Translations under genes and position numbers: made by a program
NCBI RefSeq assembly: GCF_044647545.1
Contig: NZ_CP172818.1
Length of the DNA: 64,000 bases
Source of the DNA: Escherichia coli
GTDB lineage: Bacteria; Pseudomonadota; Gammaproteobacteria; Enterobacterales; Enterobacteriaceae
Strand: one strand, 5' to 3'
Part shown: positions 32,391-54,418 of the stretch, one piece after another
Position numbering within the stretch: position 1 is the stretch's first letter
How the letters are laid out: the number at the start of each line of letters is the position of its first letter
Notes under the pieces: generated by a model
What the model was told of the DNA's origin: nothing
The model's database searches: none
Seen by the model: only the letters and a program-made list of their open reading frames with translations

Positions 32391-32412
32391 CCGGAGAGTA
32401 TGGCTCTCCGGC
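32390..32412 (-). terminator. intrinsic terminator candidate for ygbA
   Basis: gccggagag-tatgg-ctctccggc hairpin 5 nt after ygbA stop, followed on the minus strand by a T-rich tract. Confidence 0.55.
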
Positions 32413-32416
32413 AGAT

Positions 32417-32761: not shown

Positions 32762-33047
32762 GCTGCCTCCATACTCTTAAGGTGTATTTATATTACAACT
32801 TAATTTGAAAGGGGACTATGGCTCTGAAGGAGGAGGTTTATTCAACCGACGCAATTTTGCGTACTTGCTTCATAAGCATCACGCAAAAGCTGCAAAACAG
32901 CATCTTTCCCGGAATCACCATCAAGAACTCGCCGTTCGCTTCTTCCCCTGAAATGATTAACTCCGGTATCATGTGCGCCTTATGTGATAACAACGAAAAT
33001 AAAAACCATCACACCCCATTTAATATCAGGGAACCGGACATAACCCC

Positions 33048-35609
33048 ATGAGTGCAATAGAAAATTTCGATGCCCATACGCCCATGATGCAGCAGTATCT
33101 CAAGCTGAAAGCCCAGCATCCCGAGATCCTGCTGTTTTACCGGATGGGCGACTTTTATGAACTGTTTTATGACGACGCAAAACGGGCGTCGCAACTGCTG
33201 GATATTTCACTGACCAAACGCGGTGCTTCAGCGGGAGAGCCAATCCCGATGGCGGGGATTCCCTACCATGCGGTGGAAAACTACCTCGCCAAACTGGTGA
33301 ACCAGGGCGAATCGGTTGCTATTTGTGAACAGATTGGCGATCCGGCGACCAGCAAAGGGCCGGTCGAGCGCAAAGTTGTCCGTATCGTTACGCCGGGCAC
33401 CATCAGCGATGAAGCGCTGTTGCAGGAACGTCAGGACAACCTGCTGGCGGCTATCTGGCAGGACAGTAAAGGTTTCGGCTACGCAACGCTGGATATCAGT
33501 TCCGGTCGTTTTCGCCTGAGCGAACCGGCGGACCGCGAAACGATGGCGGCAGAACTGCAACGTACGAATCCAGCGGAATTACTGTATGCGGAAGATTTCG
33601 CCGAGATGTCGCTGATTGAAGGTCGCCGCGGCCTGCGTCGTCGCCCGCTGTGGGAGTTTGAAATCGACACCGCGCGCCAGCAGTTAAACTTGCAATTTGG
33701 CACTCGCGATCTGGTCGGTTTTGGCGTCGAGAACGCGCCGCGCGGACTTTGTGCCGCCGGTTGTCTGTTGCAATATGCGAAAGATACCCAACGCACGACC
33801 CTGCCGCATATTCGTTCTATCACTATGGAACGTGAGCAGGACAGCATCATTATGGATGCCGCGACGCGTCGTAACCTGGAAATCACCCAGAATCTGGCGG
33901 GTGGTGCGGAAAATACGCTGGCTTCTGTGCTCGACTGCACCGTCACGCCGATGGGCAGCCGTATGCTGAAACGCTGGCTGCATATGCCAGTGCGCGATAC
34001 CCGCGTCTTGCTTGAGCGCCAGCAAACTATTGGCGCATTGCAGGATTTCACCGCCGAGCTGCAGCCGGTACTGCGTCAGGTCGGCGACCTGGAACGTATT
34101 CTGGCGCGTCTGGCTTTACGAACCGCTCGCCCACGCGATCTGGCCCGTATGCGTCACGCTTTCCAGCAACTGCCGGAGCTGCGTGCACTATTAGAAAATG
34201 TCGAAAGCGCACCGGTACAGGCGCTGCGTGAGAAGATGGGCGAGTTTGCCGAACTGCGCGATCTGCTGGAGCGGGCCATTATCGACACACCGCCGGTACT
34301 GGTGCGCGACGGTGGTGTTATCGCGCCGGGCTATAACGAAGAGCTGGATGAGTGGCGGGCGCTGGCTGACGGCGCGACCGATTATCTGGAGCGTCTGGAA
34401 ATCCGCGAGCGTGAACGTACCGGCCTGGACACGCTGAAAGTCGGCTTTAACGCGGTTCATGGTTATTACATTCAGATCAGCCGTGGACAAAGCCATCTGG
34501 CACCCATCAACTATATGCGTCGCCAGACGCTGAAAAACGCCGAACGCTACATTATTCCAGAGCTAAAAGAGTATGAAGACAAAGTACTCACCTCGAAAGG
34601 TAAAGCACTGGCACTGGAAAAACAGCTTTATGAAGAGTTGTTCGACCTGCTGTTGCCGCATCTGGAAGCGTTGCAACAGAGCGCGAGCGCGCTGGCGGAA
34701 CTCGACGTGCTGGTGAACCTGGCGGAACGGGCCTATACCCTGAACTACACCTGCCCGACCTTTATTGATAAACCTGGCATTCGCATTACCGAAGGCCGCC
34801 ATCCAGTGGTTGAACAGGTACTGAACGAACCGTTTATCGCTAACCCGCTAAACCTGTCGCCACAGCGCCGCATGTTGATCATTACCGGTCCGAACATGGG
34901 CGGTAAAAGTACCTATATGCGCCAGACCGCGTTGATTGCGCTGATGGCGTATATCGGCAGCTACGTACCGGCGCAAAAAGTCGAGATTGGCCCGATCGAC
35001 CGTATCTTTACCCGCGTAGGCGCGGCAGACGATCTGGCATCCGGGCGTTCAACCTTTATGGTGGAGATGACCGAAACCGCCAATATTTTACATAACGCCA
35101 CCGAATATAGTCTGGTGTTGATGGATGAGATCGGGCGTGGAACGTCCACTTACGATGGTCTGTCGCTGGCGTGGGCATGCGCGGAAAATCTGGCAAATAA
35201 GATCAAAGCGTTGACGCTGTTTGCTACCCACTATTTCGAGCTGACCCAGTTACCGGAGAAAATGGAAGGCGTCGCCAACGTGCATCTCGATGCGCTGGAG
35301 CACGGCGACACCATTGCCTTTATGCACAGCGTGCAGGATGGCGCGGCGAGCAAAAGCTACGGCCTGGCGGTTGCAGCTCTGGCAGGCGTGCCAAAAGAGG
35401 TTATTAAGCGCGCACGGCAAAAACTGCGTGAGCTGGAAAGCATTTCGCCGAACGCCGCCGCTACACAGGTTGATGGTACGCAGATGTCCCTGCTTTCTGC
35501 GCCAGAAGAAACGTCGCCTGCGGTCGAGGCACTGGAAAACCTCGACCCGGATTCACTGACTCCGCGTCAGGCGCTGGAGTGGATTTATCGGTTGAAGAGT
35601 CTGGTGTAA
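33048..35609 (+). CDS. mutS: DNA mismatch repair protein MutS
   Basis: 853 aa ORF; N-terminal mismatch-binding GDFYELF, Walker [10 protein letters not shown]. Confidence 0.95.
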
Positions 35610-35615
35610 TAACAA

Positions 35616-35642
35616 TTCCCGATAGTCTTTTGCTATCGGGAA
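35616..35642 (+). terminator. 10-bp stem hairpin after mutS (ttcccgatag-tcttttg-ctatcgggaa)
   Basis: read in sequence 7 nt after mutS stop; no strong U-run. Confidence 0.45.
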
Positions 35643-35714
35643 TATTAACGACAACTGACGAATCAAATAAAAATACCCTGTATAATAGGAAATCTTATTT
35701 TACAGGGTAAAACC

Positions 35715-36371
35715 ATGCCATCTACACGCTATCAAAAAATTAATGCCCATCACTATCGTTATATATGGGCCGTTGGTGATATTCATGGTGACTATCAATT
35801 ATTACAATCCCGCTTACATCAACTCTCTTTTTGCCCTGAAACCGACTTACTTATTTCCACAGGCGATAATATTGATCGTGGGCCGAAGAGTCTTAACGTG
35901 CTGCACCTGCTAAACCAACCCTGGTTTACGTCGGTTAAAGGCAACCACGAAGCGATGGCGTTGGATGCATTCGAAACTGGCGATGGAAATATGTGGCTTG
36001 CCAGCGGTGGTGACTGGTTTTTCGATTTAAATGATTCAGAGCAACAAGCGGCAATAGATCTGTTGCTGAAATTCCATCACCTTCCACATATTATTGAAGT
36101 TACTAACGACAACACAAAATATGTCATCACACATGCAGATTATCCGGGGAATGAATATCTCTTTGGTAAAGAAATAGCGGAGAGCGAATTACTCTGGCCT
36201 GTTGATCGTGTGCAGAAATCGCTTAATGGCGAGTTACAACAAATAAACGGCGCTGATTATTTTATATTTGGACATATGGTGTTTGATAACATTCAGACGT
36301 TCGCAAACCAGATTTATATTGATACCGGATCGCCGAAAAGCGGGCGGCTGTCATTTTATAAAATAAAGTAG
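35715..36371 (+). CDS. pphB: serine/threonine protein phosphatase 2 (calcineurin-like metallophosphatase)
   Basis: 218 aa ORF with GDIHGD and GDNIDRGP metallophosphatase motifs. Confidence 0.9.
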   Translation: MPSTRYQKINAHHYRYIWAVGDIHGDYQLLQSRLHQLSFCPETDLLISTGDNIDRGPKSLNVLHLLNQPWFTSVKGNHEAMALDAFETGDGNMWLASGGDWFFDLNDSEQQAAIDLLLKFHHLPHIIEVTNDNTKYVITHADYPGNEYLFGKEIAESELLWPVDRVQKSLNGELQQINGADYFIFGHMVFDNIQTFANQIYIDTGSPKSGRLSFYKIK

Positions 36372-36372
36372 T

Positions 36373-36398
36373 CTCATGCTTCTTCTGTGAAGCATGAG
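36373..36398. terminator. 10-bp perfect hairpin (ctcatgcttc-ttctgt-gaagcatgag) between convergent pphB and ygbI
   Basis: read in sequence 2 nt after pphB stop. Confidence 0.5.
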
Positions 36399-36399
36399 T

Positions 36400-37150
36400 A
36401 ACCGAGATGTTCTGCAGGCCCCTACTCATTTTTCGCTACCAGCAAAGAGAGATCCTGCTTCGCCAGCACGCAACTGGCGCTCTCCGGCGAAGCCGCATAT
36501 CTAATAATCTGATCAAACTAGTAATGGTAACGCCAGCCATGTCGCCACCTGACCATATTTCGTCGCATCACAGACCAAAACTCGCTGGCGGCTGGCACTG
36601 GCAATCGCCCGTTTCACCGTGACTTTATCTTTCCGCTGGCGTAAATCCCCCGCACACTCCATGACGATGCAGAAATAAAAACCTGATCAATCATCAGGCT
36701 GCGCAGCATGGTCGCAGCGGCTTCCCCGACACAGGAACGGTTTTCCCGACACACTGCACCGCCAGTGTGAATAATTGTGCAATTACTGTTGTCAGCAAGT
36801 AGTTCGCAATAACGAAATCGTTTGTGACCACAGTCAGTGACTCCATGTGAATCAGATGCTGTGCTATCGCTAACGTGGTCGTTCCCGCATCCAGATAGAT
36901 ACAACTTTCCGGCTGAACAGACTTTTGCCGCCAGCTTGCCAATAGCCGCTTTTTGCGTCATTGCCAGCGCAGTTTTACCTAAGTTCGCCATGCGCCACGC
37001 GTCCCGGAGACTGGACGCCTCCGGACACCCAGCACAACGGCTCCCTGCTGCTCCAGTTTTTGTAAATCCCGACGAATGGTCATATGTGACACATTACTCA
37101 TTCTGTCCGTTAGTTCAGCAATACTGACAATGCCTTTTTCAGCTTATCTC
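36400..37150 (-). pseudogene. ygbI: DeoR-family regulator YgbI, reading frame broken in several places
   Basis: minus-strand translation gives DeoR HTH fragment VSHMTIRRDLQKLEQQGAVVLGV and a C-terminal sugar-binding fragment (ORF 36614..36991) in different frames separated by stops. Confidence 0.5.
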
Positions 37151-37382
37151 AAGGATCATCTGGCGACGCTCTACGGGTATCAACTTTTGCTCCTTCCTTT
37201 GTCCTGCTGACATTCTACGCTATTTGCCTGCGAAACGTGCGCGGCGCAACTAACGCTTAGTTCACATAAAATAACACACAATGTTAATTTATGTGAATCA
37301 GCTCACCATATCGTTATCTTCCAGCGCTTATATTCACAATATCAAACAAAATATCACTTAAATTAACCAACAAGGAGAGCAG

Positions 37383-38291
37383 ATGAAAACGGGATCTGAG
37401 TTTCATGTCGGTATCGTTGGCTTAGGGTGAATGGGAATGGGAGCAGCACTGTCATGTGTCACGAGCAGGTCTTTCTACCTGGGGCGCAGACCTGAACAGC
37501 AATGCCTGCGCTACGTTGAAAGAGGCAGGTGCTTGCGGGGTTGCTTGATAACGCCGCGACGTTTGCCGAAAAACTGGACATTATGCTGGTGCTGGTGGTA
37601 AATGCGGCCCAGGTTAAACAGGTGCTGTTTGGTGAAACGGCGTTTGCACAACATCTGAAACCCGGTACGGCAGTAATGGTTTCTTCCACTATCGCTAGTG
37701 CTGATCGCGCAAGAAATTGCTACCGCTCTGGCTGGATTCGATCTGGAAATGCTGGATGCGCCAGTTTCTGGTGGTGCAGTAAAAGCCGCTAACGGTGAAA
37801 TGACTGTCATGGCCTCCGGTAGCGATATTGCCTTTGAACGACTGGCACCCGTGCTGGAAGCCGTTGCCGGAAAAGTTTATCGCATAGGTGCAGAACCGGG
37901 ACTAAAGAGTTCGACCATTAAAGTTCTTCACCAGTTAGCGGGCGTACATATTGCTGCCGGAGCCGAAGCGATGGCACTTGCAGCCCGTGGGATCCCGCTG
38001 GATGTGATGTATGACGTCGTGACCAATGCCGCCGGAAATTCCTGGATGTTCGAAAACCAGATACGTCATGTGGTGGATGGCGATTACACCCCGCATTCAG
38101 CCGTCGATATTTTTGTTAAGGATCTTGGTCTGGTTGCCGATACAGCCAAAGCCCTGCACTTCCCGCTGCCATTGGCCTCAACAGCATTGAATATGTTCAC
38201 CAGCGCCAGTAACGCGGGTTACGGGAAAGAAGACGATAGCGCAGTTATCAAGATTTTCTCTGGCATCACTCTACCGGGAGCGAAATCATGA
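37383..38291 (+). pseudogene. ygbJ: 3-hydroxyisobutyrate dehydrogenase-family enzyme YgbJ (putative L-threonate dehydrogenase) with premature stop and compensating frameshifts
   Basis: ATG 37383 then GIVGLG Rossmann start, TGA at codon 16 (37428); middle segment readable in frame of ORF 37529..37792 and C-terminal 197 aa in ORF 37698..38291; total span 909 nt equals an intact 302-aa gene. Confidence 0.55.
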
Positions 38292-39454
38292 TCAAGATTG
38301 GCGTTATCGCCGATGATTTTACCGGCGCGACGGATATCGCCAGTTTTCTGGTGGAAAACGGTCTACCAACGGTACAAATTAACGGTGTTCCAACAGGTAA
38401 AATGCCGGAAGCAATCGACGCACTGGTGATCAGCCTGAAAACGCGCTCCTGTCCAGTGGTTGAAGCCACACAGCAATCGCTGGCGGCTCTGAGCTGGTTG
38501 CAACAGCAAGGTTGCAAACAGATCTATTTCAAATACTGCTCTACTTTCGACAGTACGGCGAAAGGTAATATTGGCCCGGTTACCGATGCCTTAATGGATG
38601 CTCTCGACACGCCGTTTACGGTCTTCTCTCCGGCCCTGCCGGTCAACGGACGTACGGTTTATCAGGGGTATTTGTTCGTAATGAATCAACTGCTGGCCGA
38701 ATCCGGGATGCGCCATCACCCGGTAAATCCCATGACCGACAGCTATCTTCCCCGTCTGGTTGAAGCGCAATCCACAGGGCGCTGCGGCGTCGTTTCGGCA
38801 CATGTTTTCGAACAAGGTGTGGATGCCGTTCGTCAAGAGCTGGCTCGCTTACAGCAAGAGGGCTACCGCTACGCGGTGCTTGATGCGCTGACCGAACACC
38901 ATCTGGAAATTCAGGGAGAAGCCTTGCGCGATGCCCCACTGGTAACGGGCGGTTCTGGTCTGGCGATTGGCCTGGCCCGGCAGTGGGCGCAAGAAAACGG
39001 TAACCAGGCTCGCAAAGCAGGGCGTCCGCTCGCTGGGCGCGGCGTAGTGCTCTCCGGTTCATGCTCTCAAATGACCAACCGCCAGGTAGCACATTACCGT
39101 CAAATTGCACCAGCCCGTGAAGTTGATGTGGCACGCTGCCTCTCAATTGAAACTCTGGCCGCTTATGCACACGAACTGGCAGAGTGGGTTCTGGGCCAGG
39201 AAAGTGTACTTGCTCCACTGGTTTTTGCCACCGCCAGCACTGACGCATTGGCAGCAATTCAACAGCAATACGGTGCACAAAAAGCCAGTCAGGCAGTAGA
39301 AACACTGTTTTCTCAACTAGCGGCGCGGTTAGCAGCGGAAGGCGTGACACGCTTTATTGTCGCAGGCGGTGAGACCTCCGGCGTAGTCACACAGAGCCTG
39401 GGAATAAAAGGGTTTCATATTGGCCCAACCATTTCCCCGGCGTGCCGTGGGTAA
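38288..39454 (+). CDS. ygbK: four-carbon acid sugar kinase family protein YgbK (putative 3-oxo-tetronate kinase)
   Basis: 388 aa ORF MIKIGVIADDFTGATDIASFL (DUF1537 N-terminus); 4-bp overlap with ygbJ stop. Confidence 0.8.
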   Translation: MIKIGVIADDFTGATDIASFLVENGLPTVQINGVPTGKMPEAIDALVISLKTRSCPVVEATQQSLAALSWLQQQGCKQIYFKYCSTFDSTAKGNIGPVTDALMDALDTPFTVFSPALPVNGRTVYQGYLFVMNQLLAESGMRHHPVNPMTDSYLPRLVEAQSTGRCGVVSAHVFEQGVDAVRQELARLQQEGYRYAVLDALTEHHLEIQGEALRDAPLVTGGSGLAIGLARQWAQENGNQARKAGRPLAGRGVVLSGSCSQMTNRQVAHYRQIAPAREVDVARCLSIETLAAYAHELAEWVLGQESVLAPLVFATASTDALAAIQQQYGAQKASQAVETLFSQLAARLAAEGVTRFIVAGGETSGVVTQSLGIKGFHIGPTISPACRG

Positions 39455-39545
39455 ACGCACTGGATAAGCCTGTCTCACTCGCCCTTAAATCTGGCAACTT
39501 CGGTGATGACGCCTTTTTTTCACGAGCCCAAAGAGAGTTTTTATC

Positions 39546-40184
39546 ATGAGCGATTTCGCAAAAGTAGAGCAGTCTTTGCGAGAGGAGATGACGCGGATTG
39601 CCAGTTCATTCTTTCAGCGCGGCTATGCAACCGGTTCGGCTGGCAATCTGTCGCTGCTTTTACCTGACGGGAATTTACTGGCGACACCGACAGGTTCATG
39701 CCTGGGCAATCTCGATCCGCAGCGGCTTTCCAAAGTCGCCGCGGATGGCGAATGGTTAAGTGGTGACAAACCCTCGAAAGAGGTGCTCTTTCATCTGGCG
39801 CTGTATCGCAACAATCCGCGCTGTAAAGCGGTGGTGCATTTGCACAGCACATGGTCGACGGCGCTTTCCTGCCTGCAAGGGCTGGACAGCAGCAACGTTA
39901 TTCGTCCGTTCACACCATACGTGGTGATGCGGATGGGAAATGTCCCGCTGGTGCCTTATTACCGACCGGGCGATAAACGCATCGCACAGGATCTGGCGGA
40001 ACTGGCAGCAGACAATCAGGCTTTTTTACTGGCAAATCATGGCCCAGTGGTTTGCGGTGAAAGCCTGCAAGAAGCCGCCAACAATATGGAAGAGCTGGAG
40101 GAAACGGCAAAGCTGATTTTTATTCTCGGTGACCGCCCGATCCGTTATCTGACCGCAGGTGAAATTGCGGAATTAAGGAGTTAA
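39546..40184 (+). CDS. ygbL: class II aldolase/adducin-family protein YgbL (putative 3-oxo-tetronate 4-phosphate decarboxylase)
   Basis: 212 aa ORF, class II aldolase fold signature (HLHS, GS). Confidence 0.8.
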
Positions 40185-40188
40185 TGCA

Positions 40189-40965
40189 ATGCCTCGTTTT
40201 GCAGCTAATTTATCCATGATGTTCACCGAAGTGCCTTTTATTGAACGCTTCGCCGCAGCGCGAAAAGCCGGGTTCGATGCTGTGGAATTTCTGTTTCCCT
40301 ATAACTACTCCACCCTGCAAATCCAAAAGCAACTGGAGCAAAACCATCTGACACTGGCGCTGTTCAATACCGCTCCCGGAGATATTAATGCGGGGGAATG
40401 GGGATTATCCGCCCTTCCCGGACGTGAGCACGAAGCACACGCAGACATCGACCTGGCACTGGAATATGCATTGGCGCTCAATTGTGAACAAGTCCATGTG
40501 ATGGCAGGCGTCGTGCCCGCTGGCGAAGATGCTGAACGGTACCGGGCAGTATTTATCGATAATATCCGCTACGCTGCCGACCGCTTTGCGCCACACGGCA
40601 AGCGAATATTAGTTGAAGCACTCAGCCCCGGCGTTAAGCCTCATTATCTCTTCTCCAGCCAGTATCAGGCACTGGCTATTGTTGAAGAGGTTGCGCGAGA
40701 TAACGTGTTTATTCAACTAGATACTTTTCATGCGCAAAAAGTAGATGGCAACCTGACGCATTTAATCCGCGACTACGCCGGGAAATATGCGCACGTACAA
40801 ATTGCCGGACTACCTGATCGACATGAACCGGACGATGGAGAAATCAACTATCCGTGGCTGTTCCGCCTGTTCGATGAGGTGGGATATCAGGGCTGGATCG
40901 GTTGTGAATATAAACCTCGTGGCCTCACCGAAGAAGGGCTTGGCTGGTTTGACGCCTGGCGCTAA
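40189..40965 (+). CDS. ygbM: hydroxypyruvate isomerase-like TIM-barrel protein YgbM (putative 2-oxo-tetronate isomerase)
   Basis: 258 aa ORF, xylose isomerase-like TIM barrel. Confidence 0.8.
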
Positions 40966-41053
40966 TTCGTTAAATCCCTAATTACAACGTACCCATACAT
41001 CCCCCCATCTACGGATGGGGTAGGTTAACTATAACTTTCAGACAGGGTTTCCC

Positions 41054-42418
41054 ATGTCCACAATTACATTGTTATGCATTGCGTTAGCTGGCGTAATCAT
41101 GCTGTTGCTGCTGGTCATCAAGGCAAAGGTACAACCATTCGTTGCTTTGCTCCTCGTCAGCCTGTTAGTCGCACTTGCGGCAGGTATACCGGCGGGCGAA
41201 GTGGGTAAAGTGATGATCGCCGGGATGGGCGGTGTGCTTGGTTCCGTCACTATTATTATTGGTCTGGGCGCTATGCTGGGGCGTATGATCGAACACTCTG
41301 GTGGTGCAGAGTCACTGGCTAATTATTTCAGTCGCAAGTTAGGTGACAAACGAACTATCGCTGCGCTGACTCTGGCAGCGTTCTTCCTCGGTATTCCCGT
41401 CTTCTTTGATGTCGGCTTTATTATTCTTGCGCCAATCATTTACGGTTTTGCCAAGGTTGCCAAAATATCGCCACTCAAATTTGGCCTGCCTGTCGCTGGG
41501 ATCATGCTCACTGTTCACGTGGCGGTACCGCCGCATCCAGGCCCTGTCGCCGCAGCGGGGTTACTCCACGCAGACATCGGCTGGCTAACCATCATCGGTA
41601 TTGCGATTTCTATTCCCGTAGGGGTTGTTGGCTACTTTGCAGCGAAAATAATCAATAAGCGCCAATATGCGATGTCAGTAGAAGTACTGGAACAGATGCA
41701 ACTGGCTCCGGCCAGTGAGGAAGGCGCGACAAAATTAAGCGATAAAATAAATCCACCGGGCGTCGCGCTGGTCACCTCGCTAATTGTTATTCCTATCGCG
41801 ATTATCATGGCGGGTACGGTTTCCGCAACACTGATGCCGCCTTCGCATCCCCTGCTTGGTACGCTACAGCTGATCGGCTCACCAATGGTAGCTCTAATGA
41901 TTGCGCTGGTGCTGGCATTCTGGTTATTGGCTTTACGTCGCGGCTGGAGCTTACAACACACCAGCGACATTATGGGCTCAGCGCTTCCTACTGCGGCGGT
42001 AGTGATTTTGGTTACTGGTGCTGGAGGGGTATTTGGCAAAGTGCTGGTGGAATCGGGCGTCGGCAAAGCCCTTGCCAACATGCTACAAATGATTGACCTG
42101 CCTCTGTTACCAGCCGCATTTATTATTTCACTGGCGCTGCGTGCATCGCAGGGGTCAGCAACCGTAGCAATACTGACAACCGGCGGGTTACTCTCAGAAG
42201 CGGTGATGGGATTGAATCCGATTCAGTGCGTATTGGTGACGCTGGCAGCCTGCTTTGGTGGGCTTGGTGCGTCACATATTAATGACTCAGGGTTCTGGAT
42301 TGTGACCAAATATCTGGGGTTGTCGGTAGCAGACGGTCTGAAAACCTGGACAGTGTTAACGACCATTCTCGGTTTTACCGGATTCTTAATTACCTGGTGC
42401 GTATGGGCGGTAATTTGA
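41054..42418 (+). CDS. ygbN: GntP-family acid sugar transporter
   Basis: 454 aa polytopic membrane ORF. Confidence 0.85.
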   Translation: MSTITLLCIALAGVIMLLLLVIKAKVQPFVALLLVSLLVALAAGIPAGEVGKVMIAGMGGVLGSVTIIIGLGAMLGRMIEHSGGAESLANYFSRKLGDKRTIAALTLAAFFLGIPVFFDVGFIILAPIIYGFAKVAKISPLKFGLPVAGIMLTVHVAVPPHPGPVAAAGLLHADIGWLTIIGIAISIPVGVVGYFAAKIINKRQYAMSVEVLEQMQLAPASEEGATKLSDKINPPGVALVTSLIVIPIAIIMAGTVSATLMPPSHPLLGTLQLIGSPMVALMIALVLAFWLLALRRGWSLQHTSDIMGSALPTAAVVILVTGAGGVFGKVLVESGVGKALANMLQMIDLPLLPAAFIISLALRASQGSATVAILTTGGLLSEAVMGLNPIQCVLVTLAACFGGLGASHINDSGFWIVTKYLGLSVADGLKTWTVLTTILGFTGFLITWCVWAVI

Positions 42419-42424
42419 CCTTAA

Positions 42425-42457
42425 TAAAAAGGTCCGATGGGCATCGGACCTTTTATT
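42425..42457. terminator. bidirectional intrinsic terminator between ygbN and rpoS
   Basis: aaaa-ggtccgat-gggc-atcggacc-ttttatt: 8-bp GC-rich stem flanked by A-run and T-run. Confidence 0.8.
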
Positions 42458-42511
42458 GTGCACAGAAAAGGCCAGCCTCATAAGAGACTGGCCTTTATGA
42501 CAGATGCTTAC

Positions 42512-43504
42512 TTATTCGCGGAACAGCGCTTCGATATTCAGCCCCTGCGTTTGCAGGATTTCGCGCAAACGGCGCAGGCCTTCAACCTGAATCTGGCGAA
42601 CACGTTCACGGGTGAGGCCAATTTCACGACCTACATCTTCCAGTGTTGCCGCTTCGTACCCCAGCAAACCGAATCGACGTGCCAGTACTTCACGCTGTTT
42701 GGCGTTCAGCTCGAACAGCCATTTGACGATGCTCTGCTTCATATCGTCATCTTGCGTGGTATCTTCCGGACCGTTCTCTTTTTCATCGGCCAGGATGTCC
42801 AGCAACGCTTTTTCGGAATCACCACCCAGCGGGGTGTCTACCGAGGTAATGCGCTCGTTAAGACGAAGCATACGGCTGACGTCATCAACTGGCTTATCCA
42901 GTTGCTCTGCGATCTCTTCCGCACTTGGTTCATGGTCCAGTTTATGGGACAACTCGCGTGCGGTTCGCAGGTAAACGTTCAGCTCCTTTACGATGTGAAT
43001 CGGCAAACGAATAGTACGGGTTTGGTTCATAATCGCCCGTTCGATCGTCTGGCGAATCCACCAGGTTGCGTATGTTGAGAAGCGGAAACCACGTTCCGGG
43101 TCAAACTTCTCTACCGCGCGGATCAGCCCCAGGTTGCCCTCTTCGATAAGATCCAGCAAAGCCAGACCACGATTGCCATAACGGCGGGCAATTTTTACCA
43201 CCAGACGCAAGTTACTCTCGATCATCCGGCGGCGAGAGGCAACATCTCCACGCAGTGCGCGACGCGCAAAATAAACTTCTTCTTCGGCCGTTAACAGTGG
43301 TGAATAACCAATCTCACCAAGGTAAAGCTGAGTCGCGTCCAGCACACGCTGTGTGGCTCCCTGCGATAACAGTTCCTCTTCGGCCAAATCGTTATCACTG
43401 GGTTCCTCTTCTACTAAGGCCTTTTCGTCAAAAACCTCAACTCCGTTCTCATCAAATTCCGCATCTTCATTTAAATCATGAACTTTCAGCGTATTCTGAC
43501 TCAT
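42512..43504 (-). CDS. rpoS: RNA polymerase sigma factor sigma-S (sigma38)
   Basis: ORF 42512..43540 trimmed to [17 protein letters not shown]; sigma70-family regions 2-4; 330 aa. Confidence 0.93.
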
Positions 43505-43566
43505 AAGGTGGCTCCTACCCGTGATCCCTTGACGGAACATTCAAGCAAAAGCCTGGTTCCGCCGAT

Positions 43567-44706
43567 TTATCGCTGCGGCAAATAACGCAGCGGGTTTACG
43601 GATTTCCCCTTGTAACGAATTTCAAAATGCAAGCGTGTTGAACTGGTTCCGGTGCTACCCATGGTTGCTATTTTTTGCCCCGCCTTCACTTCTTGTTGTT
43701 CCCGGACCAGCATTGTGTCGTTATGGGCGTAGGCACTCAGGTAATCATCATTATGTTTGATGATAATCAGATTACCGTAGCCGCGCAGCGCGTTACCGGC
43801 ATAAACAACGCGGCCATCTGCAGTCGCGATAATTGCCTGTCCTTTGCTGCCTGCGATATCAATCCCCTTGTTGCCCCCCTCAGAAGCGCCAAAGGTTTCG
43901 ATCACTTTGCCCTCAGTCGGCCAGCGCCAGGTGGAGATAGGCGTACTGGTTGATGTACTGCTGACAGTCGGCTCGGTTGTGCTTGCTGTTGGTACCGTTA
44001 CAGGCGCTGTGACCGTGGTCGCAGTTGGCTTGTTGTTCGGCAACATTTTGTTAGCACTCTGTTCACCCGAAGACTCAGAATACGTAATTGTCGGTTGCGA
44101 AGCAACAGCAACGGTGGAATTTTGTGCAGGCTTGATCACAACTCCTTGCTCTGCTGCGTCGGCCTGGGTAATGGCATTTCCGCCAGTGATTGGCGTACCG
44201 GAAGCATTCCCCACCTGTAAGGTCTGACCGACGTTCAGCGCATATGGTGCCTGAATATTGTTGCGCTGAGCAAGGTCACGGAAATCGTTGCCAGTAATCC
44301 AGGCGATATAGAAAAGTGTGTCGCCTTTTTTCACGGTGTATGTACTGCCGCTATAACTGCCTTTCGGAATGTTCCCATACTGACGGTTGTAGACGATTCG
44401 TCCGTTTTCCATCTGTACCGGCTGCTGAGCTACTGGCTGCACAGGCTGGATTTGCGGTTGTTGAGTAGCCTGAATTTGTGGCTGCTGTACCGGCTGAATT
44501 TGCGGTTGCTGCGCTGTAGACGTCGTCCCCATTTTCGACGGCGGCGTAATCAACATACCAGAATTGGTATTTGTAGGCGCATTGCCATTAACGGAGCTGA
44601 CCGGTGCCGGTGGATTTGAAGTGTCAGAACAGCCTGCCAGCCATAGCGAAACCAGTGACAAAGCCGCAATGCGGCGAACGGTGAATTTTGGGCTTCCCGC
44701 GCTCAT
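43567..44706 (-). CDS. nlpD: LysM/M23-peptidase lipoprotein, amidase activator NlpD
   Basis: 379 aa ORF with lipobox LAGCS, QPQIQ repeats, LysM and C-terminal M23 domain; rpoS promoter known to lie within this gene. Confidence 0.92.
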
Positions 44707-44845
44707 TTATCCCCCAGGAAAAATTGGTTAATAACCAGTGACATAATTACCGTGCAAGGCACCATACTGAACACTGGAAAAGATGTTCACGATACGCTGA
44801 CTTGCGGCAAAATAACCAGGAAAAATCCAGGTATTTCCTCACGTT

Positions 44846-46207
<1,362 letters not shown>

Positions 46208-46227
<20 letters not shown>

Positions 46228-47257
46228 AATCACCTGTTGTGTTGATAAGTTCCCTGACAACGCTGGTTGCAAAACTACCCGCCGGAAGCCAGAAACGGAT
46301 TTCTACGGTGACGTCATCCCACCAGTTCCAGCTTAATTGTTGCGGATACAGCAGCATCGCTCTGCGCGCGGCTTCAACTTTTTCGCGCACCAGTAAGGCT
46401 TGTAATTCAGTTTCTGCGGCGACAGCTGCTTGTTCGAATGCCAGCGCTTCACGCTGAGTTCCCCATTCGCCACTGCCCGGCAATGCGGCGGTTATCATCA
46501 GCTCTTTATCGTTGACGCGACGCTGTAATTCCACCAGTTCTTCGGTGGTTGCGACAAACCAGCTACCACGTCCGGCTAATTGTAGCGCATCGCCGTCAAC
46601 AACTTGATTAACGTCTGCTTTTTTGAGGCGCTCAGCAACAATCTGATTAAACAACGCACTGCGGGCTGCCGACAACCAAAAACTCCGTTTATTGCGATCG
46701 CGCACCGGAGTATTGGTTTGCGCCCAGCGCAGCGCGCCCTGCAAGTTGCTACCGCCAATCCCAAAACGTTGGGCACCGAAGTAGTTCGGTACACCTTTTA
46801 CGCAAATATCGATCAGACGTTGTTCAACGTCATCGCGATTGCTCACTTCGCGCAGAACCAGGGTAAAGGCGTTACCTTTCAGCGCGCCTAAACGCAGCTT
46901 GCGCTTGTGCCGCGCATACTCCAGCACCTGGCAGCCTTCCAGTTGAAAGGCGCTCAGATCGGGCATCTCTTTGCCCGGCACGCGAGCGCATAACCACTGT
47001 TCCGTAACAGCATGTTTGTCTTTTTGCCCAGCGAAGCTGACTTCACGGGAATGAATTTTCAGGAATTTCGCCAGTGCATCCGCCACAAAACGGGTATTGC
47101 AGCCGTTTTTGAGGATTCTAACCAGAATATGCTCACCTTCACCATCAGGCTCAAAGCCCAAATCTTCCACCACCACAAAGTCTTCCGGATTGGCTTTCAG
47201 CAGCCCGGTGCCTTGCGGTTTACCGTGGAGGTAAGTGAGATTATCAAACTCAATCAT
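46208..47257 (-). CDS. truD: tRNA pseudouridine13 synthase
   Basis: 349 aa [30 protein letters not shown]. Confidence 0.9.
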
Positions 47258-47733
47258 TTTGTTGCCTTAATGAGTAGCGCCACCGCTTCACAGGCAATCC
47301 CTTCCCCACGTCCGGTAAATCCAAGTTTTTCCGTAGTAGTGGCTTTCACGTTAACATCATCCATATGGCAGCCGAGATCTTCGGCAATAAACACGCGCAT
47401 TTGTGGAATGTGCGGCAACATCTTCGGTGCCTGAGCGATGATAGTGACATCGACGTTGCCAAGGGTATAACCCTTCGCCTGAATACGACGCCAGGCTTCG
47501 CGTAGCAGCTCGCGGCTGTCGGCACCTTTAAATGCCGGATCGGTATCCGGGAACAGTTTGCCGATATCCCCCAGCGCCGCCGCGCCAAGCAATGCATCGG
47601 TCAACGCATGGAGCGCCACATCGCCATCAGAATGCGCCAGCAATCCTTTTTCGTAAGGAATGCGTACGCCACCAATGATAATTGGGCCTTCACCGCCAAA
47701 GGCGTGTACGTCAAAACCGTGTCCAATTCGCAT
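47254..47733 (-). CDS. ispF: 2-C-methyl-D-erythritol 2,4-cyclodiphosphate synthase
   Basis: 159 aa [16 protein letters not shown]. Confidence 0.93.
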
Positions 47734-48443
47734 TATGTATTCTCCTGATGGATGGTTCGGGTGAGGTAAAACTCGGCCAGTGCCAAATCTTCCGGGCGCG
47801 TGACTTTAATGTTATCCGCGCGGCCTTCGACCAACTGCGGATGAAATCCGCAATATTCCAGCGCCGAGGCTTCGTCGGTAATGGTAGCGCCTTCATTTAG
47901 AGCGCGCGTCAGGCAGTCATGTAACAGCTCACGAGGGAAAAATTGCGGCGTCAGCGCGTGCCATAAGCCGTTGCGATCAACGGTATGAGCAATGGCATTT
48001 TTGCCCGGTTCGGCACGTTTCATCGTATCGCGCACTGGTGCGGCGAGGATCCCCCCCGTGCGGCTGGTTTCGCTCAACGCCAACAGGCGCGCGAGGTCAT
48101 CCTGATGCAGACAAGGACGAGCGGCATCATGCACCAATACCCACTGCGCGTCGCCAGCGGCTTTCAAACCTGCCAGCACGGAATCGGCACGCTCATCACC
48201 GCCATCTACAACGGTGATTTGCGGATGATTCGCCAGAGGAAGTTGTGCAAAACGGCTATCGCCAGGACTTATGGCAATGACGACATGTTTCACCCGGGGA
48301 TGCGCCAGCAGCGCATGCACCGAGTGTTCAAGAATGGTTTGATTACCGATTGAGAGATATTGCTTAGGACATTCCGTTTGCATTCGACGGCCAAATCCGG
48401 CCGCCGGAACCACGGCGCAAACATCCAAATGAGTGGTTGCCAT
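47733..48443 (-). CDS. ispD: 2-C-methyl-D-erythritol 4-phosphate cytidylyltransferase
   Basis: 236 aa ORF with [10 protein letters not shown] motif; 1-bp overlap with ispF. Confidence 0.93.
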
Positions 48444-48461
48444 GTTAATTCCTGGGCTGAT

Positions 48462-48773
48462 TTATCGATTGTTTTGCCCCGCAGACTGTGCGCGCTTCGA
48501 CGCGTCAGGCACCAGACGATAAAAAGTTTCGCCCGGCCTGGTCATGCTGAGTTCATTACGCGCACGCTCTTCGAGCGCCTCCTGGCCGCCATTGAGATCG
48601 TCAATTTCGGCAAAAAGTTGATCGTTTCGCGCTTTAAGTTTCGCGTTTGTAGCTTGCTGTGCCGCCACATCATCATTGACGCGGGTATAGTCATGTATAC
48701 CGTTCTTACCGAACCACAGCGAATACTGTAGCCAGACCAGAATAGCCAGCAACAGCAGCGTTAGTTTACCCAT
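48462..48773 (-). CDS. ftsB: cell division protein FtsB
   Basis: 103 aa ORF, N-terminal TM helix followed by coiled coil. Confidence 0.9.
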
Positions 48774-48966
48774 CCTGCCCCCTGAAAAACGGCATCATCA
48801 TCCCATGCATCCGAAGACGACTCTACATCCTCTGTTGGGGATACCGCGACAACGCGGGCAAATGTACCACATTTGTCCATTGTTACGTATACCCAGGGCG
48901 TGCAGAACATAATCTCATTATTAGTTACGGTTTGAATTATGAACAGAGGAGACAAGAAAGTACAAA

Positions 48967-49290
48967 TTAGCCCAGTAGCCACATAAACAGTGCGCCAAAC
49001 ATAATGCCTACTGTCACCAGGGTGAAAACAATACTGTAGCGTAGCTTTCCGTCCATCAATGAATGCAGCGCAATCCCCACCACTACCGCGACAGGCATCA
49101 GTGCCAGAAAGAAAGGCCAGGTGTAGATAAAGAAGAACAGCGTGTTAGAGCCATAAATCAACATCGGCATCGCCAGCGCAAATAACCATGAGATAAAACC
49201 GACCACGGCACCAGGCAGTGACCATGTGGTTTCTTCATCCTCAGTAAGGCTGTCGTTATTTGTTAGTGTAATGTTATGGCTATTACGCAT
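48967..49290 (-). CDS. ygbE: small inner-membrane protein YgbE
   Basis: 107 aa ORF with three hydrophobic segments. Confidence 0.8.
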   Translation of the reverse strand: MRNSHNITLTNNDSLTEDEETTWSLPGAVVGFISWLFALAMPMLIYGSNTLFFFIYTWPFFLALMPVAVVVGIALHSLMDGKLRYSIVFTLVTVGIMFGALFMWLLG

Positions 49291-49339
49291 ATTTGATCCT
49301 GTTACTTTGACGAACCGGGCATGGAAACCCGGTGGTGTC

Positions 49340-49945
49340 TCAGGATCTGATAATATCGTTCTGTCTCAACAGATCTAATAATTGCTGTACCAAATTTGTT
49401 ACTAATTGTTCACCATTGAGATGAATTTCTGCCGATTCAGGCGCTTCGTAAACGGAATCTATTCCCGTAAAGTTGCGCAGTTCACCGGCACGCGCTTTCT
49501 TATATAAGCCTTTTGGATCGCGGGCTTCGCAAATCGCCAGCGGTGTATCGACAAACACTTCGATAAAGCGCCCTTCTCCTACGCGTTCGCGAACCATCTG
49601 GCGTTCGGCGCGGTGTGGCGAGATAAATGCGGTCAGCACCACCAGTCCGGCTTCAACCATCAAATTCGCCACTTCACCGACGCGACGGATATTCTCTTTA
49701 CGATCGGCATCGCTAAAACCGAGATCGCTGCATAATCCGTGGCGAACATTGTCGCCATCCAGCAGATACGTACTGACGCCGAGTTTATGTAACGCCTCCT
49801 CCAGCGCCCCGGCGACCGTTGATTTACCGGACCCGGAGAGGCCGGTAAACCACAGCACTACACCACGATGACCGTGGTGTAGCTCGCGTTGTTGCACAGT
49901 GACTGGATGGCTATGCCAGACGACGTTTTCGTCATGCAGCGCCAT
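49340..49945 (-). CDS. cysC: adenylylsulfate (APS) kinase
   Basis: 201 aa ORF with P-loop GLSGSGKST. Confidence 0.93.
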
Positions 49946-51372
49946 TATTTATCTCCCAGCAAATCGCGCGCGCCCCAGTGCGGAAAGTGGCGGCGAACCA
50001 GAGCATTCAATTCCAGTTCGAATACACTGAATTGAGATGGCGCAGCAGTTGCCTGGCTAACTGGCTCGTGCACCATACCGGCACCTACGGTCACATTGCT
50101 CAGGCGATCGATTAAAATCAGCCCACCGGTCACCGGATTTTGCTGATAACGATCTAACACCAGTGGCTCGTCAAAGGTGAGATCTACCAGGCCGATGCCG
50201 TTCAGCGGCAGGTTTTCAACTTCGCGTTGGGTAAGGTTATTAATATCAACCTGATAACGAATACCATCAACACGAGCACGCGTCTTCTTACCGGCAATTT
50301 TGATGTCATAACTCTGGCCCGGGGAAAGCGGCTGTTCCGCCATCCATACCACATCCACCGACGCGCTCTGCACAGCCGGTAACGCTTCGTCTGCCGCCAG
50401 CAGCAGATCGCCACGGCTGATGTCGATCTCATCCGTCAGCACCAGGGTGATCGCTTCTCCGGCAAAGGCTTCTTCGCGATCGCCATCAAAAGTCACGATC
50501 CGCGCGACGTTTGATTCCACACCAGAGGGCAGCACTTTGACACGTTGCCCGACTTCCACGCGACCGGATGCCAGCGTTCCGGCGTAGCCACGAAAATCGA
50601 GATTCGGACGGTTAACGTACTGCACCGGGAAGCGCATTGGCTGAGCATCCACCACTCGCTGGATCTCCACGGTTTCCAGCACTTCTAGCAGTGTCGGACC
50701 GCTGTACCACGGCATACTTTCACTTTGCGAAGCCACGTTGTCGCCTTCCAGTGCGGAGAGCGGCACAAAGCGGATATCCAGATTACCCGGCAGCTGCCCG
50801 GCAAAAGTCAGATAATCTTCACGAATACGGGTGAACGTCTCTTCACTGTAATCCACCAGATCCATTTTGTTGATCGCCACGACCAGATGTTTGATCCCCA
50901 ACAGTGTGGAGATAAAACTGTGACGACGGGTTTGATCGAGCACGCCTTTACGGGCATCGATCAGTAAGATCGCCAGTTCACATGTCGATGCGCCAGTCGC
51001 CATATTGCGGGTGTACTGCTCGTGCCCTGGGGTGTCGGCGATAATAAATTTACGCTTCTCGGTAGAGAAATAGCGGTAGGCCACATCAATAGTGATGCCC
51101 TGTTCGCGCTCAGCTTGCAGGCCGTCCACCAGCAGTGCCAGATCCAGCTTTTCGCCCTGGGTGCCGTGACGCTTACTGTCGTTATGCAGCGATGAGAGCT
51201 GATCTTCGTAGATTTGGCGGGTATCGTGTAGCAGGCGACCAATCAGGGTACTTTTGCCGTCATCGACGCTACCACAGGTCAGAAAACGCAGCAGGCTTTT
51301 ATGTTGTTGCGCAATCATCCAGGCTTCGACGCCGCCTTCATTGGCGATTTGTTGTGCAAGTGCGGTGTTCAT
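49945..51372 (-). CDS. cysN: sulfate adenylyltransferase subunit 1 (GTPase)
   Basis: 475 aa ORF, EF-Tu-like GTPase motifs GSVDDGKST and DTPGH. Confidence 0.93.
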
Positions 51373-51373
51373 C

Positions 51374-52282
51374 TTAAAAATACCCCTGACGTTTTTTCAG
51401 CTCCATAGACCCCGCCTGGTCGCGGTCAATCACGCGGCCCTGACGTTCACTGGTGGTGGAAACCAGCATCTCTTCGATGATCTCCGGCAGTGTTTGTGCA
51501 TTTGACTCCACCGCACCGGTCAGCGGCCAGCAGCCCAGCGTACGGAAACGCACCATCCGTTTTTTAATCACTTCGCCCGGTTGCAGGTCGATACGGTTGT
51601 CATCAATCATCATCAACATACCGTCGCGTTCCAGAACCGGACGTTCCGCAGCGAGATACAGCGGCACAATGTCGATATTTTCCAGCCAGATGTATTGCCA
51701 GATATCCTGCTCGGTCCAGTTAGAGAGCGGGAAGACGCGGATGCTTTCGCCTTTGTTAATTTGCCCGTTGTAGTTGTGCCACAGCTCCGGGCGCTGATTT
51801 TTCGGATCCCAGCGATGGAAGCGGTCACGGAAAGAGTAGATTCGCTCTTTAGCGCGGGATTTCTCTTCGTCACGACGTGCGCCACCGAAGGCGGCATCAA
51901 AACCGTATTTGTTCAGCGCCTGTTTCAGGCCTTCAGTTTTCATAATATCGGTATGTTTCGCGCTGCCGTGTACGAATGGATTAATCCCCATCGCCACGCC
52001 TTCCGGGTTTTTATGCACCAGCAGCTCGCAGCCGTAGGCTTTCGCCGTACGATCGCGGAACTCATACATCTCGCGGAATTTCCAGCCGGTATCGACATGC
52101 AGCAACGGGAAAGGCAGCGTACCTGGATAAAACGCCTTGCGCGCCAGATGCAGCATGACGCTGGAATCTTTACCGATAGAGTAGAGCATCACCGGATTTG
52201 AGAATTCTGCAGCCACCTCGCGAATAATGTGGATGCTTTCCGCCTCCAGTTGCCGCAGGTGAGTAAGTCGTTTTTGATCCAT
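51374..52282 (-). CDS. cysD: sulfate adenylyltransferase subunit 2
   Basis: 302 aa ORF, PAPS reductase-like fold, SIGKDS motif. Confidence 0.93.
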
Positions 52283-52533
52283 AACCGTTCCTTTGCAATA
52301 CCGCTATTTTCTTGCCATCAGATGTTTCGACTATAGGGAGCGCAGGAGAACGAATGAAATTACCAATTAGAATGAGTAGTTCCTTAACGGAATAACGATT
52401 TGGCAAAGCTAATGTCAAAAAGTGCTTAAGGCACCAGATTTCGGGCGTTTAGGAAGATTTGAAATTGTTTTAGCGCATCGGCAGTTTCATACTATGGCGG
52501 TAAAAAAATTTGCATGGTATTTAAGGACTCACT

Positions 52534-53571
52534 ATGTTTTCCGCATTGCGCCACCGTACCGCTGCCCTGGCGCTCGGCGTATGCTTTATTCTCCCCGTAC
52601 ACGCCTCGTCACCTAAACCTGGCGATTTTGCTAATACCCAGGCACGACATATTGCTACTTTCTTTCCGGGACGCATGACCGGAACTCCTGCAGAAATGTT
52701 ATCTGCCGATTATATTCGCCAACAGTTTCAGCAAATGGGTTATCGCAGTGATATTCGGACATTTAATAGTCGGTATATTTATACCGCCCGCGATAATCGC
52801 AAGAGCTGGCATAACGTGACGGGAAGTACGGTGATTGCCGCTCATGAAGGCAAAGCTCCGCAGCAGATTATCATTATGGCGCATCTGGATACTTACGCCC
52901 CGCTGAGCGATGCTGACGCCGATGCCAATCTCGGCGGGCTGACGTTACAAGGAATGGATGATAACGCCGCAGGTTTAGGTGTCATGCTGGAATTGGCAGA
53001 ACGCCTGAAAAATACGCCTACCGAGTATGGTATTCGATTTGTGGCGACCAGCGGCGAAGAGGAAGGGAAATTAGGCGCTGAGAATTTACTCAAGCGGATG
53101 AGTGACACCGAAAAGAAAAATACGCTGCTGGTGATTAATCTCGATAACTTAATTGTTGGCGATAAATTGTATTTCAACAGTGGTGTAAAAACCCCTGAAG
53201 CAGTAAGGAAATTAACGCGCGACAGGGCACTGGCAATTGCGCGTAGTCATGGAATTGCCGCAACGACCAATCCGGGTTTGAATAAAAATTATCCGAAGGG
53301 TACTGGCTGTTGTAATGACGCCGAAGTTTTCGACAAAGCCGGTATTGCGGTACTTTCGGTGGAGGCGACCAACTGGAATCTTGGAAATAAGGATGGTTAT
53401 CAGCAACGCTCAAAAACACCGGCCTTCCCGGCGGGAAATAGCTGGCATGATGTAAGGCTTGATAATCAACAGCATATTGATAAGGCGCTTCCTGGAAGAA
53501 TAGAACGTCGTTGCCGTGATGTTATGCGGATAATACTACCGCTGGTGAAGAAACTGGCGAAGGCGTCTTGA
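52534..53571 (+). CDS. iap: alkaline phosphatase isozyme conversion aminopeptidase (M28 family)
   Basis: 345 aa ORF with signal peptide and M28 peptidase metal-binding motifs. Confidence 0.9.
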   Translation: MFSALRHRTAALALGVCFILPVHASSPKPGDFANTQARHIATFFPGRMTGTPAEMLSADYIRQQFQQMGYRSDIRTFNSRYIYTARDNRKSWHNVTGSTVIAAHEGKAPQQIIIMAHLDTYAPLSDADADANLGGLTLQGMDDNAAGLGVMLELAERLKNTPTEYGIRFVATSGEEEGKLGAENLLKRMSDTEKKNTLLVINLDNLIVGDKLYFNSGVKTPEAVRKLTRDRALAIARSHGIAATTNPGLNKNYPKGTGCCNDAEVFDKAGIAVLSVEATNWNLGNKDGYQQRSKTPAFPAGNSWHDVRLDNQQHIDKALPGRIERRCRDVMRIILPLVKKLAKAS

Positions 53572-53652
53572 TGGGTTTGAAAATGGGAGCTGCGAGTTCT
53601 ACCGCAGGGGCGGGGAATTCTAAGTGATATCCATCATCGCATCCAGTGCGCC

Positions 53653-54418
53653 CGGTTTATCCCCGCTGGCGCGGGGAATCGCCGGAAAATATTCATGATG
53701 GGGGTGGTTATGGCGGTTTATCCCCGCTGGCGCGGGGAATCTCGGGGCCGCCGTGTTCACATTTGCCTAATTTCCCGGTTTATCCCCGCTGGCGCGGGGA
53801 ACTCTATCATAAACGAGGTGAATTTATGGAAACTGTACGGTTTATCCCCGCTGGCGCGGGGAACTCGTTAGTTTTCGAAAAAATTGTTTTCTTACGCTGG
53901 TTTATCCCCGCTGGCGCGGGGAACTCAATTATTGTCGTGGACAAATGCCGGTGTTATTGCGGTTTATCCCCGCTGGCGCGGGGAACTCATTCGAGACAAT
54001 CTCTCAAAATTAATGAAATCGGTTTATCCCCGCTGGCGCGGGGAACTCCAGGTATCAAGAAATAATCGAAGCCTTCATGACGGTTTATCCCCGCTGGCGC
54101 GGGGAACTCAATTGATTGCTGGGTGATATTGGAAAATGTTGCGGTTTATCCCCGCTGGCGCGGGGAACTCCTACCGTACAGATCCTGACCGGATATTATT
54201 TTTTTGCGGTTTATCCCCGCTGGCGCGGGGAACTCCGACGTTCGACGAAATGCGCGATGGCGGTCGGCGGTTTATCCCCGCTGGCGCGGGGAACTCTTCT
54301 GCGTCCCCGATGTCTGGCCCGACTGGTCCGGTTTATCCCCGCTGGCGCGGGGAACTCTATATGACCGGAACACTTCCGCCTGACGTTTGCGGTTTATCCC
54401 CGCTGGCGCGGGGAACTC
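53653..54418 (-). CRISPR. type I-E CRISPR array: 13 copies of 29-bp repeat (minus-strand GAGTTCCCCGCGCCAGCGGGGATAAACCG), 12 spacers
   Basis: repeat starts on + strand at 53653, 53714, 53776, 53838, 53898, 53960, 54020, 54081, 54142, 54207, 54268, 54329, 54390; distal repeats degenerate; spacers about 31-33 nt except one of 36 nt. Confidence 0.97.

Follow-up and report, generated by a model that had tools for sequence, protein, structure and literature searches.

The interval at 42512-44706 of the window, the whole 64,000-nt stretch of Escherichia coli DNA analyzed here, is almost certainly the standard nlpD-rpoS operon of the species in a wild-type, functional-looking form. The allele, judged by its sequence, is the common natural one encoding Glu33, and it matches the MS6198/IMT16316 lineage base for base. 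The unit is textbook biology and already known. The window around it is a mosaic, and several stretches that lie beside real genes, including the one that begins shortly past the rpoS stop codon, are probably unreal.

The open reading frame list for the window places two minus-strand frames here, at 42512-43540 and 43567-44706. The first overstates rpoS, as the in-frame ATG at 43540 merely reflects the longest-extension rule of the ORF finder. The start at 43504, which gives the N-terminus MSQNTLKV, is backed by a Shine-Dalgarno sequence, by the NCBIfam RpoS profile, whose alignment begins at residue 1 of the 330-aa version, and by the RefSeq annotation of the identical MS6198 DNA as a gene of 993 nt. 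An earlier sequence-only reading of this DNA had placed rpoS 63 bp after the nlpD stop. This is borne out as a difference of coordinates (43567 and 43504), equivalent to 62 intervening bases, and the distance is the same in MG1655 (2867614 and 2867551). A 213-aa frame antisense to rpoS (42437-43078, plus strand) lacks a Pfam match and was set aside as a shadow ORF.

By profile score, the identifications of rpoS and nlpD are far beyond chance. RpoS matches the NCBIfam equivalog NF004207 with 604.6 bits (cut-off 394, E 5e-182, residues 1-329) and TIGR02394 with 480.7 bits (cut-off 378.7), and Pfam recovers Sigma70 regions 1.2, 2, 3, and 4 (PF00140, PF04542, PF04539, PF04545). NlpD matches the NCBIfam equivalog NF008123 with 677.7 bits (cut-off 311, E 4.5e-204). 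Direct reading of its translation gives an N-terminal lipoprotein signal peptide with a lipobox, and Pfam adds LysM and Peptidase_M23 domains. Read by eye, the usual HxxxD and HxH positions of the M23 domain are NKGID and RLH, so that the active site may be degenerate, as in an activator rather than a peptidase. Gene order at nlpD-rpoS agrees with that of MG1655 and other strains. The coordinates of all features are summarized in Table 1.

Table 1. Features of the nlpD-rpoS interval and blocks of the window that match MS6198 (positions of the window; leader positions are relative to the rpoS start codon).
Feature	Coordinates	Strand	Remarks
rpoS coding sequence	42512..43504	-	330 aa, ATG to TAA, intact
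nlpD coding sequence	43567..44706	-	379 aa, intact
NlpD lipobox LAGC, Cys26	44631..44629	-	read directly from the translation
NlpD LysM domain	44340..44212	-	residues 123-165; Pfam
NlpD Peptidase_M23 domain	43872..43591	-	residues 279-372; Pfam
nlpD-rpoS spacer	43505..43566	-	62 nt, identical to MG1655; carries Shine-Dalgarno TAGGAG at 43517..43512
pcm-nlpD intergenic region	44707..44845	-	location of the nlpD promoters in K-12 (PMC10948607)
Candidate PrpoS inside nlpD	44072..44105	-	direct reading and published start-site position
rpoS 5' untranslated leader	43505..44071	-	567 nt, by positional homology to K-12; 43567-44071 is also nlpD coding sequence
(AAN)4 element AACAACAAGAAG	43700..43689	-	in the leader
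A6 element CAAAAAATAG	43677..43668	-	in the leader
Inhibitory stem, 5' arm, and small-RNA pairing hub	43597..43638	-	predicted
Inhibitory stem, 3' arm	43493..43522	-	-18 to +12; covers the Shine-Dalgarno region and AUG; predicted
rpoS terminator hairpin	42467..42496	-	AAAGGCCAGTCTC-TTAT-GAGGCTGGCCTTT then TTTTCTG; 13 pairs; ViennaRNA fold
Block 1	1-18025		99.99% to MS6198
Block 2	18032-32167		99.88% to MS6198; errors build up from about 31976
Block 3	32386-36370		100% to MS6198
Block 4	42466-64000		identical to MS6198 outside the CRISPR array

The allele was defined by an ungapped comparison with K-12 MG1655 over 6 kb, followed by a codon-by-codon reading. The 6 kb contain 42 substitutions and no indels, with every substitution at or to the right of 42480. 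In MG1655, the pair (b2742-b2741, NC_000913.3 2866559-2868753) has the same order, strand, protein lengths (379 and 330 aa), and 62-nt spacer, and differs by 28 substitutions within the two genes. Ten of these fall in rpoS, of which nine are synonymous and one is not (Q33E): codon 33 is GAG (Glu) at 43408..43406, compared with CAG (Gln) in MG1655. The other 18 fall in nlpD and comprise 16 synonymous changes together with A45T and P57S. There are none in the spacer. The alignment with MG1655 yielded no amber codon, frameshift, deletion, or internal stop in either gene. The sequence-only reading had seen nothing anomalous in 42512-44706 and had proposed alignment with a reference in search of amber or frameshift alleles; its assessment is upheld for this interval, and the alignment returns an intact rpoS with the Glu33 allele.

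This allele is widespread. GAG at codon 33 is usual in natural non-K-12 isolates, in contrast to the CAG of MG1655 and the TAG of some K-12 stocks (PMC2700278), and it is also present in all three of the other non-K-12 strains compared. The rpoS DNA is 100% identical to that of MS6198, and the protein is WP_000081550.1, which is also encoded by unrelated strains. At least 30 complete E. coli genomes, including MS6198, IMT16316, and ECONIH1, match the whole of 42512-44706 at 100% identity, and 1,292 of the 5,426 scanned match it at 99% or more. For MS6198, IMT16316, ECONIH1, and their relatives, which we take to be ST648, the nucleotide identity of 100% extends onward to about 53.5 kb. In this strain, RpoS would be expected to direct transcription of the general stress regulon (for example katE).

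In the working proposed for the operon, nlpD would provide an outer-membrane lipoprotein that activates a cell-wall amidase and rpoS the sigma factor of stationary phase and the general stress response. Most rpoS mRNA would come from a weak promoter within nlpD, with a start 567 nt ahead of the rpoS AUG. A leader segment at about -124 to -94 would then pair with the ribosome-binding site and AUG and so block translation, until DsrA, RprA, and ArcZ, small RNAs that depend on Hfq, base-pair with this same segment and open the stem. Transcription start, promoter use, Hfq binding, and activation by the small RNAs would follow published K-12 work, from which they are carried over. The window itself provides the identity and integrity of the genes, the allele, the identity of the regulatory segment to K-12, the complementarity to the three small RNAs, and the predicted fold.

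In K-12, transcription from a promoter ahead of nlpD yields a bicistronic nlpD-rpoS transcript at a low level, while the main rpoS promoter lies inside nlpD and starts 567 nt upstream of the rpoS AUG (PMC10948607). The pcm-nlpD intergenic region of the window carries two SNPs relative to K-12, at 44764 and 44802. By homology, the published PrpoS start corresponds to position 44071 of the window, the same as in MG1655 relative to rpoS. Direct reading upstream of it finds a candidate -10 hexamer (TATTCT, 44082..44077), a 17-nt spacer, and a candidate -35 hexamer (TTGCTT, 44105..44100), the last of which reads TTGCGT in K-12. The difference is a SNP at 44101 that is synonymous in nlpD codon 202 and, of the five sequences compared, is confined to the MS6198 type. 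Both versions of the -35 hexamer match TTGACA at three of six positions, and a sigma-70 consensus scan accordingly found no promoter here. The earlier claim of a promoter embedded in nlpD is consistent with this position and with the candidate hexamers upstream of it, and PrpoS is placed at this site by positional homology.

The leader itself is closely conserved. Positions -1 to -161 are identical to K-12, including the small-RNA site, both arms of the stem, and the Shine-Dalgarno sequence. Four substitutions lie further upstream (-162, -183, -294, and -318), all of them synonymous in nlpD. The variants at -162 and -183 also occur in other non-K-12 strains, so K-12 is the odd one out at these two sites. 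Both (43666 and 43687) adjoin A-rich motifs, namely the (AAN)4 and A6 elements, which are presumably the counterparts of the Hfq-binding motifs known from the rpoS leader of K-12. The segment from -150 to +30 has a predicted folding energy of -54.3 kcal/mol, a modest departure from 200 shuffled sequences (z = -2.2). The minimum free energy and centroid structures are the same, with -124 to -94 paired to -18 to +12. This predicted fold matches the published inhibitory architecture.

In K-12, ArcZ, DsrA, and RprA open the inhibitory stem together with Hfq (PMC10948607). To assess pairing in the window, seed segments of the three small RNAs, with sequences taken from MG1655, were scanned against the leader for duplex energy. 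Full-length small RNAs run through RNAduplex against the whole leader had produced absurd duplexes of more than 100 nt with huge loops. DsrA pairs with -120 to -96 (43624..43600) at -26.4 kcal/mol and RprA with -134 to -93 at -30.2 kcal/mol, each the best site in the leader (next best -17.4 and -23.3 kcal/mol). ArcZ pairs with -114 to -96 at -18.1 kcal/mol, which ranks fourth in the naive scan, about 1 kcal/mol behind chance sites. This known site was recovered with a short segment of ArcZ; with the longer segment 64-100, the terminator stem of ArcZ itself drew the pairing to a spurious site at -408. The pairing site of all three shows no difference from K-12. The description of the long 5' UTR as a target of DsrA, RprA, and ArcZ is therefore supported, with a site identical to K-12 and a predicted fold that hides the Shine-Dalgarno sequence and AUG.

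None of the genes dsrA, rprA, arcZ, or hfq lies within the window. As a proxy for the small-RNA genes, a concatenated dsrA-rprA-arcZ query finds matches in 5,425 of 5,426 complete E. coli genomes, at a median of three places per genome. Rfam, which holds no model for the rpoS leader, returned nothing for it at either the gathering threshold or E<=1. Its only two matches, both at chance level, lie in the terminator region of ygbN.

The alternative that survives best accepts the standard gene pair and holds that lineage-specific changes measurably alter rpoS expression compared with K-12. The candidates are the SNP at 44101, the four leader SNPs, and the terminator loop, where bases 42480-42483 read ATAA in place of the GCTT of K-12 (plus strand) and the flanking base 42497 also differs. 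It has in its favor that the SNP at 44101 falls in the presumed -35 hexamer and is MS6198-type-specific among the five sequences, and that two leader SNPs abut the A-rich motifs. However, the two -35 variants are equally distant from the consensus, the -162 and -183 variants are shared with other non-K-12 strains, and the small-RNA site, stem, and Shine-Dalgarno sequence are unchanged. The leader and -35 changes are, moreover, all synonymous third-position changes in nlpD, as neutral drift predicts. An altered expression is on this evidence unlikely, and a wild-type operon with unremarkable lineage variation is preferred.

The mosaic structure of the window emerged from pairwise BLAST with MS6198, which gave the four matching blocks listed in Table 1. 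The structural differences between MS6198 and K-12 are all disturbed in the window. A TOBE-domain gene absent from K-12 degrades from about 31976 into homopolymer runs (GGGAAAAAGGAAAAAAAGGCGCCCCCCC...) at 32143-32387, after which perfect identity to MS6198 returns abruptly. At 18026-18031, a 568-bp ascB-hycI segment of MS6198 that is absent from K-12 is missing. The CRISPR array (53.6-54.5 kb) has spacers of the MS6198 type, but 12 compared with 13; of the 12, seven are altered by small indels or substitutions and are 31-36 nt long. Between 36371 and 42466, the window has a K-12-type ygbI-ygbN island where MS6198 has decarboxylase and MarR genes.

The two parts of this island differ in quality. 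Difference counts across MG1655, MLI023K1, and 120899 show that the right part (38065-42465) differs from MG1655 nowhere in its 4,401 nt, from one natural group-A-like strain at two positions, and from a further strain at 52. Among the first 40 perfect matches listed for this part, nearly all are K-12 laboratory derivatives; the others include BLR(DE3), of the B lineage, and a few strains of unstated origin, and more ties may follow below these 40. In the left part (36404-38064), the window departs from every reference in about 100 alignment columns. Of 102 variable columns, 91 have a state seen in the window alone; 34 clustered columns are indels, the ygbI and ygbJ frames are both destroyed, and no match exceeds 95.7%. 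At six or seven sites, this noisy patch has the state of a natural allele that is not the K-12 one.

The island meets the operon just past the rpoS terminator, a hairpin that a simple consensus terminator scan did not report. From 42465 leftwards, 46 nt past the rpoS stop codon, the sequence switches to the ygb island. When the query is extended 92 nt past the stop, the best match in 5,426 genomes falls from 100% to 98.8%. For the 131-nt ygbN-rpoS junction, the best match in the 5,426 complete genomes is 96.2%, and a 50-nt junction string is absent from GTDB species representatives and JGI metagenome contigs. At the right switch, only 14 shared bases (42466-42479, in the terminator stem) lie between the last base of K-12 type and the first one specific to MS6198, and the left switch has a shared stretch at 36339-36370. 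Both switch points coincide with the ends of homology.

Four patterns (I-IV) have been described for the mutS-rpoS (o454-nlpD) region (PMC4209514). The window is arranged as pattern II, with ygbN (o454) adjoining rpoS as in K-12. Its exact junction sequence is nevertheless absent from all 5,426 complete genomes, pattern II strains included, and its flanks come from a lineage whose sequenced members have pattern I. In MS6198 and its relatives, genes for a MarR-family (slyA-like) protein and a hydroxyarylic acid decarboxylase lie downstream of rpoS, in line with pattern I (PMC4209514).

We infer, short of proof, that the noisy ygbI-ygbJ patch, the homopolymer block, the garbled CRISPR spacers, and the ygbN-rpoS junction are artefacts of assembly or consensus rather than biology. 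The source sequence, by the same reasoning, probably came from a reference-assisted or otherwise faulty assembly or consensus process. Unmodified K-12 reference is insufficient on its own to account for the noisy patch, and simple filling from a reference does not fully explain the process, because six or seven sites match a non-K-12 natural allele. Natural pseudogene decay of ygbI-ygbJ was also rejected, given that the neighboring 4.4 kb is identical to K-12.

The junction could instead be real, if a chromosome of the MS6198 type had received a K-12-type ygb island in place of its decarboxylase/slyA island through crossovers within 14-33 nt of the island borders. This would make the mutS-rpoS variable segment an exchangeable cassette with its end exactly at the rpoS terminator, and would place a new 3' neighborhood beside an unchanged rpoS. 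Such a recombinant is improbable, because homologous exchange would normally bring SNPs of the donor into the flanking sequence, and a homopolymer block is not the product of any natural process. An artefact thus remains the favored explanation of the junction, and the adjacency of ygbN and rpoS in the window should not be trusted.

Artefactual-looking stretches nearby mean that the source sequence cannot be trusted equally throughout, and the same problems might be supposed to have affected rpoS-nlpD. The noisy or chimeric stretches at 32143-32387, 36372-42465, and 53.6-54.5 kb would be in keeping with this, as would the proximity of the chimeric junction to the rpoS stop codon. However, 42466-53499 is 100% identical to MS6198, and the operon recurs without a difference in at least 30 independent complete genomes. 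Noise would not recreate a natural haplotype exactly, which argues for a real allele and makes an artefact within the operon extremely improbable; because the clean surrounding sequence reproduces this haplotype, the conclusions on rpoS and nlpD stand. There is equally little likelihood of an attenuated or null natural allele (amber codon 33, frameshift, internal deletion, or truncation) of the kind often met among laboratory and clinical strains of E. coli: although rpoS is frequently polymorphic (PMC2700278) and its codon 33 is not that of MG1655, the gene is full length without internal stop or indel, the change from CAG to GAG is the usual one of natural isolates, the other nine changes are synonymous, and the protein is common to unrelated strains.

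For the scan of this DNA, the result is of greater import as a quality flag than as biology. Apparently novel findings in the window should be distrusted where they fall in 31.9-32.4 kb, in 36.4-42.5 kb, or in the CRISPR array. For the biology of the organism, the import is small: rpoS in this genome is intact and of the natural type, and the whole of its regulatory leader is present. As rpoS status predicts stress tolerance and the gene is often mutated, this is useful only as a descriptor of the strain.

The ygbI-ygbN genes downstream of rpoS are of K-12 type, and are set within a backbone resembling E. coli MS6198, the relative that matches most of the window and is identical across rpoS-nlpD. 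Sequenced relatives of the MS6198 type instead carry decarboxylase and MarR genes at this site. From 38065 to 42465, the window shows no differences from the K-12 reference MG1655. Not one of 5,426 complete E. coli genomes, searched with a 131-nt junction sequence, has the ygbN-rpoS junction, and a 50-nt junction string is absent also from GTDB species representatives and JGI metagenome contigs. The combination of this island and backbone is probably an artefact of chimeric or reference-assisted assembly.

In contrast to the adjoining 4.4 kb of perfect K-12 sequence, the stretch at 36404-38064, which covers ygbI plus the 5' portion of ygbJ, is noisy. Approximately 100 differing alignment columns, including 34 clustered indel columns, are found in the window alone, and both reading frames are disrupted. 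The closest match anywhere reaches 95.7%, and a natural non-K-12 allele is matched at 6-7 sites.

Sequence irregularities also occur elsewhere in the window. The c3292-like TOBE-domain gene, which is present in MS6198 and absent from K-12, accumulates single-base errors and, from 32143, passes into homopolymer runs (GGGAAAAAGGAAAAAAAGGCGCCCCCCC...AAAAAAAAAAAGGGGGGGTTTTAAAA), with perfect identity returning at 32388; the affected stretch is not natural-looking as sequence. Between ascB and hycI, 568 bp of MS6198 and its relatives (an HTH-domain gene and part of a small hypothetical gene) are missing, leaving only AAAAAA at 18026-18031; K-12 likewise lacks this segment. The CRISPR array is of MS6198 type, with 12 spacers compared to 13 in MS6198, and has no spacers in common with K-12. 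Small indels or substitutions distinguish seven of its spacers from their MS6198 counterparts, and the spacers measure 31-36 nt; a real array would not usually show such alteration and length spread. The 3' ends of repeats 1 and 2 are also altered.

Features of the window
Feature	Coordinates	Strand	Remarks
Degraded TOBE-domain gene	31976-32387		Single-base errors, then homopolymer runs
K-12-type ygbI-ygbN island	36372-42465		Junctions 36339-36370 and 42466-42479
213-aa ORF antisense to rpoS	42437-43078	+	
Type I-E CRISPR array, iap-cas2	about 53600-54520		
sok antitoxin (CssrC)	63254-63410	-	Rfam gathering-level match, 102.6 bits

The sok match, the only one in the window at Rfam gathering level, lies between cas3 and cysH, where MG1655 is annotated with sokX, and is a chromosomal hok/sok remnant. 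The antisense ORF, which has no Pfam match, is most likely a shadow ORF opposite the well-conserved rpoS.

For identical nlpD DNA, RefSeq/PGAP places the start at TTG (44661; 1,095 nt), whereas the MG1655 annotation uses ATG (44706; 1,140 nt); the shorter version lacks the positively charged n-region (KFTVRR) of the lipoprotein signal peptide, which the longer one contains. A SNP at 44101, synonymous in nlpD codon 202, falls in the presumed -35 hexamer of the rpoS promoter inside nlpD, placed by homology to the K-12 start site, and gives TTGCTT where K-12 has TTGCGT. Among the five sequences compared, this lineage-specific variant is shared only with MS6198.
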